Sequence record: PQ356294.1
DNA: 64,000 nucleotides
From: Escherichia phage Ec_YwIITB1
Reading direction: 5' to 3' (one strand)
The notes under the pieces are model-generated. The model saw nothing but the letters and a program-made list of their open reading frames with translations, did not search any database and was not told where the DNA came from. Positions 3,346 through 41,186 of the stretch are shown here, one piece after another. The position numbers and the translations under genes were made by a program. How positions within the stretch are numbered: the stretch's first letter is position 1; every line of letters begins with the position of its first letter.

Positions 3346-3762
3346 TTAAATGTAAATAGTTTTACCGTAGTATTTATACCAGTATGGCTTCATTAAAATT
3401 TTTTCATAGAGTCGTTGTTGACTCAATTTAATAGCTGATTTGCATGGATTATAATCATTTTTCCATTCTGCTGGAATATCGCTGATGTCAGGAACTTCAG
3501 TATCTTTTATACTAAACCCACGTTTTAAGCATTCCATTATAATGTCTGATTGACGCTTTCGCAAAAATTCTAACTTATCGTAAAAGAACGTGACATGACC
3601 AGAACCTAAAATAAACTCGGAAGATATTTTAAAATCTTTAACCCGTTTACCATTTGCCACGTGTTTACGAACTATACCAAAAACACGTGGCAATTCACGG
3701 TATTCCGCAATTAAATGTTGGTCAGCAAGTTCAGATACTAAAGTCAAATTAATACGAGTCAT
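3346..3762 (-). CDS. denV: endonuclease V (pyrimidine dimer DNA glycosylase)
   Basis: 138 aa, [17 protein letters not shown]...[10 protein letters not shown]...WYKYYGK matches T4 EndoV nearly throughout. Confidence 0.95.
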
Positions 3763-3821
3763 TTTATCTCTCCAAGTAACTGTGAATATACTATCGCAGT
3801 TTTAGGAGAAAATAAATAACT

Positions 3822-4352
<531 letters not shown>

Positions 4353-4793
4353 TTAAAAGAGGCTGTTCATTATTCGGTAAAGTGAAGGGCCCATCACATA
4401 TTGCCACTGAGTACGAGGAATAAGAGCAAAAGCATCCATCTCTGGAATCATAACGCCATCTTTATTTTCAAAATAAGACTCACAACAGCAATTTCTAAAC
4501 ATCTCATGCTCTACTGGAATCGTATAGTAAAATAACTGTAAGTCTTTATTACTAGAATATTTAAATACACCTAAGTCTTCTAGAAGGTCTGGATTATAAT
4601 TGCTAAAGCCAGTCTCTTCTAAGCATTCTCTTCGTGCTGCATCTAGCGCGCTTAAATCAGAATTTTCTACACGCCCCTTTGGAATATCCCAGCGATGTGC
4701 CATCATTCCATGCTTACGAGAACCAGTAACTCGTCCCATAAATAAATCTTTATCTTCTGTCATAAAGATAATACCAGCTGATAGTGTTTTCAT
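4353..4793 (-). CDS. nudE: Nudix hydrolase
   Basis: Nudix box GRVENSDLSALDAARRECLEETGF; probable start MKTLSAGIIF at ATGA overlap with upstream stop (ORF track extends to 4808). Confidence 0.85.
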   Translation of the reverse strand: MKTLSAGIIFMTEDKDLFMGRVTGSRKHGMMAHRWDIPKGRVENSDLSALDAARRECLEETGFSNYNPDLLEDLGVFKYSSNKDLQLFYYTIPVEHEMFRNCCCESYFENKDGVMIPEMDAFALIPRTQWQYVMGPSLYRIMNSLF

Positions 4794-5278
4794 TTTAATT
4801 TCCTGCATTCAGTGATAAAATTATTTAAATTTTGAGCATATTTCTTTTCATCAAAAATCTTTTGTTGCCTGCGCATCCGCCATGGCATTTCAATGAACAT
4901 GTACCATATTCCTGATAATATTGATGCTGTAAAAATATTAACAAGTATGATTAAAAGAATCCAATCTTCCGTTCTGCCTACTGGACTTTCTATAAAAAAG
5001 CAAAATACAAATGATGACACAGGAAAACTAATGATATACCACAGAATCATAATCTTATCTGTGAACCATTCAGCATTCGTTAACTTAGCACGGCCATTAT
5101 GAATACACACGAATTTATCATCTGTTACAGTAGATGGCTTAACTGCTTGATATCCCATTCTAAACTCCCTAATTAATCGTTTCTTTGTATCTTCAGAACA
5201 GCCGCTCCAGTCAACTCTATCAACTGAAATGCCATCGTCCCCATCATCTAAATCATACCAGTGAGTTTTTAAAATCAT
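4790..5278 (-). CDS. small membrane protein (e.2-region)
   Basis: 162 aa with hydrophobic helices; ATGA overlap with upstream stop. Confidence 0.55.
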   Translation of the reverse strand: MILKTHWYDLDDGDDGISVDRVDWSGCSEDTKKRLIREFRMGYQAVKPSTVTDDKFVCIHNGRAKLTNAEWFTDKIMILWYIISFPVSSFVFCFFIESPVGRTEDWILLIILVNIFTASILSGIWYMFIEMPWRMRRQQKIFDEKKYAQNLNNFITECRKLK

Positions 5279-5650
5279 TTAATTTTCCTACAATCACTCA
5301 CAAACTCTTCCATTGATTCTTTTTCAATATAAGACATATAGCTATTATATTCCTTTAATTGTATTTTGTAATCCTTTTTTCTTTGCCAATTTATTTTAAA
5401 ATTATCATAATGAAAATATAACATGGTACCAAAGAATGAAAATAATGAAATCGCTATAGTATAATGAAGTTCACTCCAAACTTCTATTATATCTACTATA
5501 CCGCTGACGTTACTGCGGATGTTTAAAATAAAACAGTCAATTAACAATCCAATAAAAACTACCCGCAAGAGCTGCAGCCAATGCCACAGCAAAAATTGAA
5601 AATGACTCAGAAAAAGAATATTTGACTTTATTTAGTTTTGGCTTTTGCAT
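5275..5650 (-). CDS. small membrane protein, apparently frameshifted
   Basis: ATG at 5650 with AGGAA RBS opens a 37-codon frame (MQKPKLNKVKYSFSESFSIFAVALAAALAG...) that overlaps the 105-aa ORF 5275..5592, which itself only has a TTG start; the two join if a T5 run near 5554..5558 is really T4. Confidence 0.4.
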
Positions 5651-7278: not shown

Positions 7279-7809
7279 TTATATCATACTATTTAAGAGA
7301 TGTAAACTATTTTTAATTTTACAAATTCGTTCAGCTTCTTCAACGGCGGCGGCGATAATGCTTTTAGCTATAGGAGTACTAATACTAGTAGCTTTTACAC
7401 TTAACACGATTTCTTTATCTTTACTAGGCCAACCCCATGATTTTTCACCATGAGTGCCTTTAATTACAGCAGACACCTCAAGTGAGCATCCACTGTCACA
7501 TGTTTTTACATTAACAACCCAAGGGTCACTTTTCTCAACCGATTTCTCAGCCGGTTTATCCCAGTAAATATTAAGAATACGTGGGACATCAAATTTAGCA
7601 GGGCAAATCTTAACTGTAAGACCTTCGCTTTCTAGCCAATTAATAAGAGGGCGTTCATACATGCGGCGATGTGGGCTTTGGACTCGACAAGCCTTGTGCC
7701 CATTGCTTGCGGCTTCACTAAGCTGTTCTAATACCTGTTTTTGCATTATTGATAAGATATCATCAAAAGATTTTTCGGAAGTTTCATTCAGTTCGGTATA
7801 AAGAGACAT
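7279..7809 (-). CDS. hypothetical protein
   Basis: ORF track begins at TTG (7824); ATG (MSLYTELNE...) at 7809 with GAGGAAA RBS. Confidence 0.5.
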   Translation of the reverse strand: MSLYTELNETSEKSFDDILSIMQKQVLEQLSEAASNGHKACRVQSPHRRMYERPLINWLESEGLTVKICPAKFDVPRILNIYWDKPAEKSVEKSDPWVVNVKTCDSGCSLEVSAVIKGTHGEKSWGWPSKDKEIVLSVKATSISTPIAKSIIAAAVEEAERICKIKNSLHLLNSMI

Positions 7810-33123: not shown

Positions 33124-36261
<3,138 letters not shown>

Positions 36262-36292
36262 ATATATTAAAGCATATTAAAGAGGATTAAAA

Positions 36293-38272
36293 ATGACTTT
36301 ATTATCTCCGGGCATTGAGCTCAAAGAAACTACGGTTCAAAGCACCGTGGTTAATAACTCTACTGGTACAGCAGCTTTGGCCGGTAAATTCCAGTGGGGT
36401 CCTGCTTTTCAAATTAAACAGGTTACGAATGAAGTAGATTTAGTTAATACTTTTGGTCAACCTACAGCTGAAACTGCTGACTATTTTATGTCTGCAATGA
36501 ATTTCTTACAATATGGAAATGATTTGCGAGTCGTGCGTGCTGTCGATAGAGATACCGCTAAAAACTCATCTCCGATTGCCGGTAATATTGAATACACTAT
36601 TTCTACCCCAGGTAGTAACTACGCGGTTGGAGATAAAATCACGGTTAAGTATGTTTCAGAAGATGTTGAAACAGAATGTAAAGTTACCGAAGTAGATGCT
36701 GATGGAAAAATTAAGAAAATTAATATTCCTACTGCAAAAATTATCGCTAAAGCAAAAGAAGTAGGCGAATATCCAGAATTAGGTTCTAATTGGACCGCGG
36801 AAATTTCTTCGTCTTCCTCTGGTTTAGCTGCAGTAATAACTCTTGGAAAAATTATTACTGATTCTGGTATTTTATTAGCTGAAATTGAAAATGCCGAAGC
36901 TGCTATGACAGCGGTTGAATTTCAGGCAAGTCTCGAAAAATATGGAATTCCAGGAGTAGTAGCTCTTTATCCAGGTGAATTAGGCGATAAAATTGAAATT
37001 GAAATCGTATCTAAAGCTGACTACGCAAAAGGAGCTTCTGCATTACTCCCAATTTATCCGGGCGGTGGTACTCGTGCATCTACTGCTAAAGCAGTGTTTG
37101 GATATGGGCCGCAAACTGACTCACAGTACGCTATTATAGTTCGTCGTAATGATGCTATTGTTCAAAGCGTTGTTCTTTCAACTAAGCGTGGCGAAAAAGA
37201 TATTTACGATAGTAACATCTATATTGATGACTTTTTCGCAAAAGGCGGCTCAGAATATATTTTTGCAACTGCACAAAACTGGCCAGAAGGATTCTCTGGA
37301 ATTTTAACTCTGTCTGGTGGATTATCATCAAATGCTGAAGTGACAGCAGGAGATTTGATGGAAGCTTGGGACTTCTTTGCTGACCGTGAATCTGTTGACG
37401 TTCAGCTGTTTATTGCGGGTTCTTGCGCCGGCGAATCTTTAGAAACAGCATCTACTGTCCAAAAACACGTCGTTTCAATTGGTGATGCTCGCCAGGATTG
37501 CTTAGTATTGTGCTCACCACCACGTGAAACTGTAGTTGGAATTCCTGTAACTCGTGCAGTAGATAATTTAGTTAACTGGAGAACTGCAGCAGGTTCATAC
37601 ACTGATAATAACTTTAATATCAGTTCAACCTATGCAGCAATCGATGGCAACTACAAATATCAGTATGACAAATATAATGATGTAAATCGTTGGGTTCCAT
37701 TAGCTGCTGACATTGCTGGTTTATGCGCAAGAACTGATAACGTTTCTCATACTTGGATGTCTCCGGCTGGTTATAATCGTGGTCAAATTCTTAACGTTAT
37801 TAAACTTGCTATTGAAACTCGCCAGGCGCAGCGCGATCGTTTATATCAAGAAGCTATCAACCCGGTAACTGGTACAGGTGGCGATGGTTACGTATTGTAC
37901 GGTGATAAAACAGCTACTTCTGTTCCTTCTCCGTTTGATCGTATTAACGTTCGTCGTCTGTTTAATATGTTGAAAACGAATATCGGACGTAGTTCAAAAT
38001 ATCGTTTATTCGAATTAAACAACGCGTTTACTCGTTCATCGTTCCGCACAGAAACTGCCCAATACTTACAGGGAATTAAAGCTCTCGGTGGAATTTATGA
38101 ATATCGTGTAGTTTGCGATACAACAAATAATACTCCGTCAGTAATTGATAGAAATGAGTTTGTTGCAACATTCTACATTCAACCGGCTAGAAGCATTAAC
38201 TACATTACCTTAAACTTCGTAGCAACTGCTACTGGTGCAGATTTCGATGAGTTAACTGGTCTTGCAGGTTAA
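36293..38272 (+). CDS. 18: gp18 tail sheath protein
   Basis: 659 aa, T4 gp18 length and position. Confidence 0.95.
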   Translation: MTLLSPGIELKETTVQSTVVNNSTGTAALAGKFQWGPAFQIKQVTNEVDLVNTFGQPTAETADYFMSAMNFLQYGNDLRVVRAVDRDTAKNSSPIAGNIEYTISTPGSNYAVGDKITVKYVSEDVETECKVTEVDADGKIKKINIPTAKIIAKAKEVGEYPELGSNWTAEISSSSSGLAAVITLGKIITDSGILLAEIENAEAAMTAVEFQASLEKYGIPGVVALYPGELGDKIEIEIVSKADYAKGASALLPIYPGGGTRASTAKAVFGYGPQTDSQYAIIVRRNDAIVQSVVLSTKRGEKDIYDSNIYIDDFFAKGGSEYIFATAQNWPEGFSGILTLSGGLSSNAEVTAGDLMEAWDFFADRESVDVQLFIAGSCAGESLETASTVQKHVVSIGDARQDCLVLCSPPRETVVGIPVTRAVDNLVNWRTAAGSYTDNNFNISSTYAAIDGNYKYQYDKYNDVNRWVPLAADIAGLCARTDNVSHTWMSPAGYNRGQILNVIKLAIETRQAQRDRLYQEAINPVTGTGGDGYVLYGDKTATSVPSPFDRINVRRLFNMLKTNIGRSSKYRLFELNNAFTRSSFRTETAQYLQGIKALGGIYEYRVVCDTTNNTPSVIDRNEFVATFYIQPARSINYITLNFVATATGADFDELTGLAG

Positions 38273-38929
38273 TTGATTATGGGGCTTCGGCCCCTATTCT
38301 CGAGGAAACAAGTGATTATTTCTAAGTTTGTTAAAGTGAAAATTGTACCATCAAATTTTAAACATTATCAATCAAAGGGTTATAAATTAACACCTCTTGG
38401 AGCGGTTAAACATGGATTTAGGTATTATGAAATTGATGTTAAAGTTGAAGACATTAAAGGTAATACCGCGTATGTAAAATGCCGTTGCGATAAATGTGGA
38501 ATTGAATATAACCAACGCATTGGAAGAAACACTGATATTTGTCGTGATTGCCGTCATAAAGATAAAATGCGCAATAATTCATATGGTTCCGCGAATAAAG
38601 GAAAAACAGTAGAATGTATGCATGGCGTAAATCATCCAAGATGGAACCCAAATAAATCTGAAATGCGTGAATATATTTCATTGGTATATAAAGAAACTCG
38701 TAAGCATAAGAAAATTTGGTCAAAATGGCCAAATGCTGATAAAATAGGAGTGTGCGGTACAAAAGGTGCTTACCAACTTGATCATAAGGTATCTATCAAA
38801 TACGGTTTTGATAATTTAATTCCTGTTGAAATAATTGGCGGTATTAATAATTTAGAAATAATCACTTGGGAATCTAACCGAGAAAAATCAAAAAGAAATA
38901 GTGTAGATCTTTGGGATTTACTAGAATGA
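38273..38929 (+). CDS. HNH-family homing endonuclease (Mob-like), free-standing
   Basis: 218 aa between genes 18 and 19; N-terminal zinc-ribbon cysteines CRCDKCG...CRDCRH and C-terminal HNH-like region YQLDHKVSIKYGF...NNLEIITWESNREKSKRN. Confidence 0.65.
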   Translation: MIMGLRPLFSRKQVIISKFVKVKIVPSNFKHYQSKGYKLTPLGAVKHGFRYYEIDVKVEDIKGNTAYVKCRCDKCGIEYNQRIGRNTDICRDCRHKDKMRNNSYGSANKGKTVECMHGVNHPRWNPNKSEMREYISLVYKETRKHKKIWSKWPNADKIGVCGTKGAYQLDHKVSIKYGFDNLIPVEIIGGINNLEIITWESNREKSKRNSVDLWDLLE

Positions 38930-38955
38930 TTCTAAAGGCCTGTTTCGGCAGGCCA

Positions 38956-39022
38956 TATAAATACACTATATCCTTAATTCTTTAATTCTATATGCCCTAG
39001 GTTAAACATAGGGATATAAATA
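38956..39022 (+). promoter_or_regulatory. two late promoters upstream of gene 19
   Basis: TATAAATA at 38956..38963 and 39015..39022. Confidence 0.55.
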
Positions 39023-39036
39023 CTACAGAGGCTAAT

Positions 39037-39528
39037 ATGTTTGTAGATGATGTAACACGAGCGTTTGAATCTGGTGATTTTGCTCGACCTAACTTATTCC
39101 AAGTAGAAATTTCTTATCTTGGACAAAATTTTACGTTTCAATGTAAAGCCACTGCTTTACCAGCTGGTATTGTAGAAAAAATTCCAGTCGGTTTTATGAA
39201 CCGTAAAATTAACGTAGCAGGCGATCGTACATTCGATGACTGGACTGTTACAGTAATGAACGATGAGGCACATGATGCTCGCCAGAAGTTTGTTGATTGG
39301 CAAAGCATTGCTGCTGGGCAAGGGAACGAAATTACTGGTGGAAAACCAGCAGAGTATAAAAAGAGTGCTGTTGTTCGCCAATATGCTCGTGACGCTAAAA
39401 CTGTAACAAAAGAAGTTGAAATTAAAGGCCTGTGGCCTACTAACGTGGGTGAACTTCAATTAGATTGGGATTCAAACAATGAAATCCAAACCTTTGAAGT
39501 AACTCTCGCTCTCGATTATTGGGAATAA
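39037..39528 (+). CDS. 19: gp19 tail tube protein
   Basis: 163 aa, T4 gp19 length and position. Confidence 0.95.
   Translation: MFVDDVTRAFESGDFARPNLFQVEISYLGQNFTFQCKATALPAGIVEKIPVGFMNRKINVAGDRTFDDWTVTVMNDEAHDARQKFVDWQSIAAGQGNEITGGKPAEYKKSAVVRQYARDAKTVTKEVEIKGLWPTNVGELQLDWDSNNEIQTFEVTLALDYWE

Positions 39529-39560: not shown

Positions 39561-41185
<1,625 letters not shown>

Positions 41186-41186
<1 letters not shown>

Follow-up and report, generated by a model that had tools for sequence, protein, structure and literature searches.

A putative free-standing HNH homing endonuclease gene at the tail sheath/tail tube junction of T4-like phages

In some T4-like phages the genes for the tail sheath (gene 18) and the tail tube (gene 19) are separated by an additional gene. 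This gene is described here from a 64,000-nucleotide stretch (the window, to which all positions refer) of Escherichia phage Ec_YwIITB1, a T4-like phage of the genus Tequatrovirus (sequence record PQ356294.1). The gene occupies 38312-38929 and, with a probability that we put at roughly 0.68, encodes an uncharacterised free-standing homing endonuclease of the HNH type, composed of two domains, MobE-like in function and lying outside the Mob family. It resides on a cassette that is present or absent at one precise site, pairs a four-cysteine module with a domain bearing catalytic-type residues, is under purifying selection, keeps a fixed locus and is linked to particular haplotypes of gene 18. 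Two types of the gene, distinguished by their N-terminal domains, recur at the same site. This two-type dimorphism did not figure in the preliminary description of the locus and is the most interesting point of the analysis.

A Precise Presence/Absence Polymorphism

Gene 18 (36293..38272, plus strand; stop codon TAA at 38270-38272) and gene 19 (39037..39528, plus strand) are separated by 764 base pairs (bp) in the window, vs 116 bp in T4. Immediately past the gene 18 stop an open frame of 218 codons begins with TTG (38273-38929) and includes the cysteine cluster C-x2-C...C-x2-C. The preliminary description had drawn attention both to this frame with its cysteines and to the shortness of the junction in T4, and on both points it was right. 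Alignment of the window with T4 and T6 delimits a cassette of 656 bp (38273..38928, plus strand), in place of which T4 has the 8 bp TACGGTGC. Its left border lies directly past the gene 18 TAA and its right border is the gene's own TGA, overlapping ATTCTAAAGG. The flanks are otherwise collinear with T4, and downstream of the cassette ATTCTAAAGG, a GGCCTG/CAGGCC hairpin, two late-promoter boxes and gene 19 are identical to T4. The same empty junction is found, without any difference, in six cassette-free Tequatrovirus sequences. The nearest public records across the junction are those of Shigella phages sb1 and sb3, at 98.6%; over 12 kilobases none goes beyond 98%.

The gene is intergenic and free-standing, as had been proposed, and genes 18 and 19 are both intact. 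Repeats, inverted or direct, are absent from the cassette ends, as is a target-site duplication, and a comparison with Rfam yielded nothing at E values up to 1; accordingly, the cassette is not a transposon, nor is it an intron. For the same reasons an origin as a transposon or as the remnant of a group I intron is hardly credible. An artefact of annotation or assembly is no more so, given that the cassette occurs in 47 independent records and that a diverged allele has stood in T6 records since 1994. Presence/absence polymorphism at a precise site, free of transposon-type ends, is a feature by which homing endonuclease genes are recognised, and it is found here.

The distribution was assessed among ~520 Tequatrovirus-level records, defined as junction matches at ≥90% identity. 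The window allele, searched for with its middle, allele-specific part, is found in 47 phage records at 95.8-100% identity, and the allele known as ORF19.1 of T6 occupies the same site in 70. One of the two alleles is present in about 22% of Tequatrovirus records; ~78%, T4 and T2 among them, are empty. An identical gene in all close relatives, the outcome that the preliminary description had named as speaking against a mobile element, is thus not what these records hold (47 + 70 of ~520). Presence also varies in other groups. In Gelderlandvirus the gene is found in S16 and is absent from a related contig (L016), and among Bp7/JS98-like phages it is found in one (L020) and absent from two others (L019 and L021). 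A scan of IMG/VR with gp19 returned 15 loci, with too few Tequatroviruses for population analysis. Every one of the 16 copies inspected is intact, and the ratio of nonsynonymous to synonymous substitution rates (dN/dS) is 0.03-0.16 for the more diverged pairs of both alleles; the gene is therefore kept by selection and is not decaying.

The preliminary description had called the gene a mobile homing-endonuclease insertion. The polymorphic, precise site and the two-domain build agree with the first part of that phrase, while the direction implied by "insertion" is not established: the family is found at this junction across the whole T4-like order, and T4 may therefore equally have lost the gene.

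Three records carry host labels at odds with their sequences. MG010123 ("Staphylococcus phage SAJK-IND"), PV654520 ("Pseudomonas phage vB_PSGBLB0006") and OR584013 ("Pseudomonas phage PsgM02F") show 92-99% identity, over the matched region, to T4-like phages of Escherichia/Shigella, and the labels look like contamination or mislabelling.

A Predicted Zinc Module Joined to a Probable Diverged HNH Domain

The likely coding sequence (38312..38929, plus strand) runs from a GTG start at 38312-38314 to a TGA stop and yields a protein of 205 amino acids (aa). An AlphaFold model of this protein (predicted local distance difference test score, pLDDT, 87) has two domains, between which residues 81-110 form a linker of lower confidence. 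The N-terminal module (residues 1-85; 38312..38566, plus strand), of type I in the window, is predicted to comprise a small beta sheet and a zinc ribbon or treble clef with four cysteines, C59, C62, C77 and C80 (38486-38551). The C-terminal, nuclease-like domain (residues 100-205; 38609..38926, plus strand) reached a predicted template modelling score (pTM) of 0.76 when modelled alone. Its predicted beta-beta-alpha core extends from D157 to K192 (38780-38887).

Two blocks are conserved in an alignment of 32 homologues with 32-76% identity, the cysteine cluster and a C-terminal block. Throughout this alignment the C-terminal motif YQLDH...NL...W..N..K is invariant, and the invariant residues of the C-terminal block are G105, W111, Q155, D157, H158, S161, G165, N180, L181, W186, N189 and K192, with N180 and N189 spaced by 9 residues. 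In the model D157 and H158 end a strand at 154-158, N180 immediately precedes a strand at 181-185, and N189 lies in a helix at 186-192, a layout that corresponds, on the predicted structure, to a beta-beta-alpha-metal (His-Me finger) site. Both the core fold (as predicted) and the residues that define the HNH superfamily, Asp-His, Asn and a helix Asn, are accordingly found in this protein. A separate conserved motif, G-x-N-H-P-R-W-N-P-N-K-S-E (38609-38660, residues 100-117), in which G105 and W111 are invariant, marks the start of the C-terminal domain. It stands outside the canonical HNH core and falls in a lower-confidence part of the model.

Curated databases give the protein little identity. 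It matches PHROG 5104, labelled "unknown function", at 2e-89, and a search with the family profile recovered 6,274 clusters (50% identity) at E≤0.001 and 1,497 at ≤1e-10; it is therefore not a chance open reading frame. Pfam returned only zinc-ribbon matches for the window protein, all below threshold, NCBIfam and PADLOC scans of it gave no match, and none of 37 close homologues has a precomputed Pfam domain. The preliminary description had suggested an HNH profile search, and on this count its assignment found no direct support: no HNH family came above threshold in Pfam scans of the 32 aligned members or of distant relatives, the matches that recur in several members being sub-threshold ones to HNH_4 (E 0.007-0.08) and HNH_5 (E 0.22). 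Sequence searches of the PDB with the single sequence, the full-length profile and the C-terminal domain profile found no HNH chain, only weak noise from zinc-finger and leucine-rich-repeat proteins, and Foldseek gave no match. The best structural matches of both predicted models are nucleases, 4h9d and 5h0o, with ~70 residues aligned and modest fold scores. When an SpCas9 HNH segment was compared by hhalign, N180 and N189 paired with N854 and N863 at a non-significant E of 0.09. Two family members carry the label "McrA", given by the Joint Genome Institute (JGI). On fold and motif, and not on profile membership, the C-terminal domain is very probably a diverged HNH nuclease.

The lack of an HNH profile at threshold and the modest fold scores would also suit a zinc-finger regulator that binds DNA or RNA and whose C-terminal domain is HNH-like without cutting. 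This is quite improbable, since the residues of the HNH catalytic centre (Asp-His, Asn and helix Asn) are invariant in all 32 sequences and the best structural matches are consistently nucleases. Inactive HNH derivatives normally lose residues of the catalytic centre.

For the N-terminal domain, 9 of the 32 members show DUF4379 below threshold, and the zinc modules of mitoribosomal mS66 are weakly similar to it. The domain resembles treble-clef zinc fingers and, on the analogy of other homing endonucleases of phages, is likely to be the part that binds DNA and sets specificity. A zinc-containing DNA-binding module combined with a nuclease is the typical build of phage homing endonucleases.

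Two Allele Types at One Site

The window allele, distinguished by an insertion P-L-G-A-x-K-x-G-F, is termed type I and the T6 allele type II. At the DNA level the two are identical over the first 40 bp and 90-98% identical over most of the last 200 bp, with 45-65% identity in the middle 350-400 bp. The window and T6 proteins accordingly share 93% identity in the C-terminal domain and 25% in the N-terminal domain. Three pairs of metagenomic lineages repeat this pattern (P0012/P0024, P0013/P0027 and P0015/P0026), with 92-100% identity in the C-terminal domain and 23-31% in the N-terminal domain. By sequence comparison, this appears to be an old dimorphism of the presumed specificity domain, kept across lineages, with the ends of the gene homogenised locally.

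The pattern, present in at least four lineages, in which the leader too is shared at 92-100% identity, could be the outcome of reciprocal allelic warfare, with cleavage by each type of the other type or of the empty site. It would also suit a conserved role of the gene as a recombination boundary between the packaging/sheath and the tube/head modules. A broader proposal, that an order-wide nuclease family is locked to the sheath/tube junction with two ancient N-terminal specificity types coexisting there, is put forward tentatively, and we would lean against it at present.

A Fixed Position and a Shuffled Nuclease-like Domain

All full-length relatives whose neighbourhoods were examined, from ~18 lineages, lie between T4-type tail sheath and tail tube genes. 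These include genes of Salmonella phage S16, Escherichia phage Bp7, Klebsiella phage HMGUkp2, Sinorhizobium phage phiM7, Aeromonas phage AS-zj and Shewanella phage Thanatos-2, as well as those of three metagenomic contigs and six far more distant metagenomic phages. The gene start of these distant phages lies no more than a few bases from the stop codon of the sheath gene. In some relatives the same C-terminal domain is found behind other modules (DUF7487, helix-turn-helix or NUMOD-like repeats), and one such protein with a different N-terminal module, P0183, is encoded at an unrelated locus by a lone gene on the opposite strand; the nuclease domain is therefore a shuffled module. Among the neighbourhoods examined, the form with the zinc module is found solely at the sheath/tube junction. 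A modular build of nuclease and DNA-binding parts, subject to domain shuffling, is a second feature of homing endonuclease genes found in this family.

Other possible insertions were noticed in the same tail and head cluster. Bp7 (L007, HQ829472) has an extra gene for a 193-aa hypothetical protein between gp19 and gp20 (3670-4251), and its portal is annotated in two pieces, gp20' and gp20 (4309-5531); this may be another mobile-element insertion in the cluster. The large terminase of Thanatos-2 (L032, MT457553; 1-1980) is called as two genes, the first of which matches a Tn7 TnsA-like N-terminal nuclease, which suggests that it holds an inserted nuclease or intein-like element. A short metagenomic Logan contig that carries the Thanatos-2 protein (L033, ERR3253512_6893) has an unannotated 206-aa gene after the tube gene (1345-1965), at a place where in the Thanatos-2 genome the portal gene follows. 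Besides its sheath/tube gene, a JGI metagenome contig from a distant T4-like phage (L043) carries a gene with HNH and NUMOD3 domains between terminase and sheath, an additional gene of 163 aa that separates tube from portal, and, further along, a gene with HNH_3. These three further elements (1043-1591, 4552-5043 and 7403-7453) make a dense run of putative endonucleases at the tail/head cluster.

Linkage to Gene 18 Haplotypes

The 3' end of gene 18 contains, within its last 100 bp, a hypervariable patch (38179..38224, plus strand), with 17 variable sites in one 50-bp interval compared with an average of ~7. Of the patch haplotypes in the phage collection, H1, the T4 type, occurs in 245 records, H2 in 108 and H3 in 90. 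The type of cassette is strongly linked to the haplotype of gene 18, which lies 50-95 bp away. Over the patch and leader, the identity to the window sequence is no more than 91.5-96.3% in 43 of the 47 records with type I, and only sb1, sb2 and sb3 resemble it. Type I carriers that were checked individually (ADUt, RB3, W143 and KRT47) have H2. The 70 type II carriers were sampled at a spread of rows, all of which fit H3 (96.3-100%), and empty phages are mostly H1. Co-conversion of cassette and flank would produce such linkage, and on sequence grounds the patch is a candidate target or immunity region.

Arguments Against Homing

Several observations weigh against an actively homing gene. By subtraction, ~64 H2 and ~20 H3 records lack the cassette, and the window itself pairs its cassette with a T4-type H1 patch. 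The patch is therefore not a proven target, and the window's combination argues against H1 being simply "the sensitive site". Plain linkage over 50-95 bp explains the haplotype pattern equally well. Mean identity of the cassette among carriers is 97%, with 95.6-98.6% in the flanks; the diversity is thus similar and gives no sign of a recent sweep. A near-isogenic pair differing by the cassette alone was not found in the collection, the best pair reaching 98% over 12 kilobases, and for this reason no conversion tract can be read directly. Finally, the strict sheath/tube position across a whole viral order, with intact genes everywhere, would also suit a useful accessory gene.

That last point, together with the low dN/dS, the similar diversity of cassette and flanks, and the way in which the gene of the distant phages abuts the sheath stop like a member of an operon, would be expected of an ancient accessory gene of the T4-type tail and packaging cluster, beneficial to its carriers, repeatedly lost (for example by T4) and not actively homing. 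Possible benefits include attack on competing phages or on host DNA, or processing of DNA late in infection. As a full account this is unlikely, though it deserves serious consideration. The ~78% of Tequatrovirus records that lack the gene, T4 and T2 included, indicate that it is dispensable, its presence varies within several genera, and the joining of its nuclease domain to other DNA-binding modules at other loci is the behaviour of a homing endonuclease. To our knowledge, no tail or packaging role is established for such a protein in T4-like phages, which package by headfuls. Homing and an accessory benefit are not mutually exclusive.

Start Codon, Leader and Expression

Comparison of homologues places the start almost certainly at the GTG at 38312 and not at the TTG that follows the gene 18 stop. 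The N-terminus M/V-I-I-S-K is kept in the 32 aligned homologues, most of which start there, and the PHROG 5104 profile begins at the same residue. The Shine-Dalgarno sequence GAGG (38302..38305, plus strand) lies six bases ahead of the GTG. An in-frame ATG further upstream is altered to AAG in W143 and ECML-134 and to GTG in JE01, and the GTG start was the choice of the depositors of the T6, RB3 and KRT47 records. The preliminary description had let the open reading frame start at the gene 18 stop; the frame does open right there, and the likely start is the GTG. The RefSeq annotation of the S16 homologue (L006, NC_020416; 2765-3085), a 106-aa "gp100.1", appears truncated, as a GTG-started open frame there gives a MIISK-type protein of ~205 aa.

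With this start a hairpin at 38281..38294 (plus strand), GGGGCTTCGGCCCC, which forms a GGGGC-UUCG-GCCCC tetraloop without a T-run, sits in a 39-nucleotide leader, 5' of the start and outside the coding sequence. It had been taken for the gene 18 terminator, enclosing the first codons of the gene, a description that does not hold. The hairpin belongs to the leader of the cassette and is not a canonical terminator: it has no T-run, a simple terminator scan of 37900-39150 found no terminator-like site, and the local fold, whose stability does not exceed that of shuffled sequences, leaves the ribosome-binding site unoccluded. A terminator role was rejected on these grounds. The T4-type hairpin that follows gene 18, GGCCTG...CAGGCC, is retained downstream of the cassette (38937..38954, plus strand). 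The same C(UUCG)G-type hairpin is found in cassettes with the T6 allele, and it may serve to stabilise the 3' end of the gene 18 mRNA or as an attenuator of the endonuclease gene. In S16 (L006, ~2440-2470) the translated leader, WAFGPFG, suggests a related GC-rich hairpin.

The cluster continues on either side with the gp17 terminase (34429-36261) and the gp20 portal (39600-41186). The late-promoter consensus TATAAATA occurs just ahead of gene 18 (36257-36264), its sole occurrence upstream of the additional gene, and twice more ahead of gene 19 on the plus strand (38956-38963 and 39015-39022), in a stretch (38956..39022) that is identical to T4. None was found between 36257 and 38956. Lacking a late-promoter consensus, the gene presumably depends for its expression on read-through transcription that starts at the promoter of gene 18.

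Proposed Mechanism and Significance

From these comparisons we infer nuclease activity, a target site, late expression and homing, which would operate as follows. Late transcription from the gene 18 promoter would read through past the CUUCGG hairpin, and translation would initiate at GAGG-N6-GTG. The N-terminal zinc-ribbon (treble-clef-like) module would recognise DNA, and nicking or cutting would fall to the diverged C-terminal HNH domain (His-Me finger, beta-beta-alpha-metal). When two phages infect one cell and one of them has no cassette or has the other allele, its sheath/tube region would be the enzyme's target. Recombinational repair from a cassette-bearing genome would then copy the cassette, along with nearby gene 18 and gene 19 sequence, into the recipient. 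Such a mode of action would be that of MobE or of I-HmuI-type HNH enzymes.

Work on free-standing homing endonucleases takes the T-even phages as its reference system, but the list of these enzymes was drawn up from T4, in which this gene is missing. If active, the protein would add a family that is invisible to the functional annotation of Pfam, NCBIfam and PHROG and is very common (6,274 clusters), and that keeps to a single junction, flanked by two tail genes that are both essential and highly expressed. In mixed infections it would favour some sheath and tube alleles over others in the progeny, and it would help to account for the mosaic patch in the 3' end of gene 18. This has practical relevance for engineered or cocktail therapeutic phages of the T4-like group, many of which (HP3, pSs-1, RB3-like and T6-like phages) have one allele or the other. 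With its two alleles the locus is a natural setting in which to study how a homing endonuclease changes specificity without leaving its site. One more homing endonuclease in T-even phages will be unsurprising to specialists; the fixed address, the size of the unannotated family and the recurrent dimorphism add interest.

Comparison with Known Systems

The closest described relative is ORF19.1 of T6, deposited in 1994, which shares with the window gene the locus between genes 18 and 19, the leader, the hairpin, the GTG start and the architecture. It differs in the diverged region of the N-terminal domain and so represents a distinct allele (type II). It is known from its database entry only, and no functional study of it was found in the literature searched. 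For decades databases have listed the gene product as a hypothetical protein, apart from the label "homing endonuclease" in the ADUt record and "type II restriction endonuclease" for a homologue in some Klebsiella phage records. Literature searches, whose coverage largely left out subscription journals, found no paper describing it.

In predicted structure the protein is nearest to small stand-alone HNH nucleases, the Geobacter Gme HNH (4h9d) and the HNH of phage GVE2 (5h0o). Two-domain, extended phage HNH enzymes that promote homing include I-HmuI and I-TevIII (PMC2790892; PMC2988022). These are encoded in group I introns, whereas the window gene has no intron and no detectable sequence similarity to them. 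An intron-encoded homing endonuclease was considered and rejected, the gene being intergenic with intact neighbours and no Rfam match.

A closer parallel in lifestyle is MobE of T4, a free-standing HNH homing endonuclease encoded between nrdA and nrdB, next to an essential gene (PMC2790892). It is promoterless and expressed by transcription from upstream, and it is paired with a polymorphic target region in a neighbouring gene, the polymorphic region of nrdB lying at the MobE nick site (PMC2790892). Its distribution in T-even phages is patchy (PMC2790892; PMC2988022). In Mob proteins the HNH domain comes first, at the N-terminus, and is followed by the part that binds DNA (PMC2790892); the domain order of the window protein is the reverse. 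Comparison by hhalign, which covered T4 MobB and MobC, gave probabilities <1%. Membership of the T4 Mob family (MobA-E) was rejected on account of the reversed domain order and the lack of profile likeness to MobB and MobC. Like MobE, the window gene is intergenic and promoterless, has a polymorphic region in a neighbouring gene and is patchily distributed.

Different endonuclease genes of T4-related phages reportedly replace one another at the same intergenic site in the pairs SegH/MobC and Hef/MobE, replacements named in the title of a 2005 paper by Sandegren et al. In those pairs unrelated families are swapped, whereas the window and T6 alleles share a leader and a nuclease domain and differ in the presumed specificity domain.
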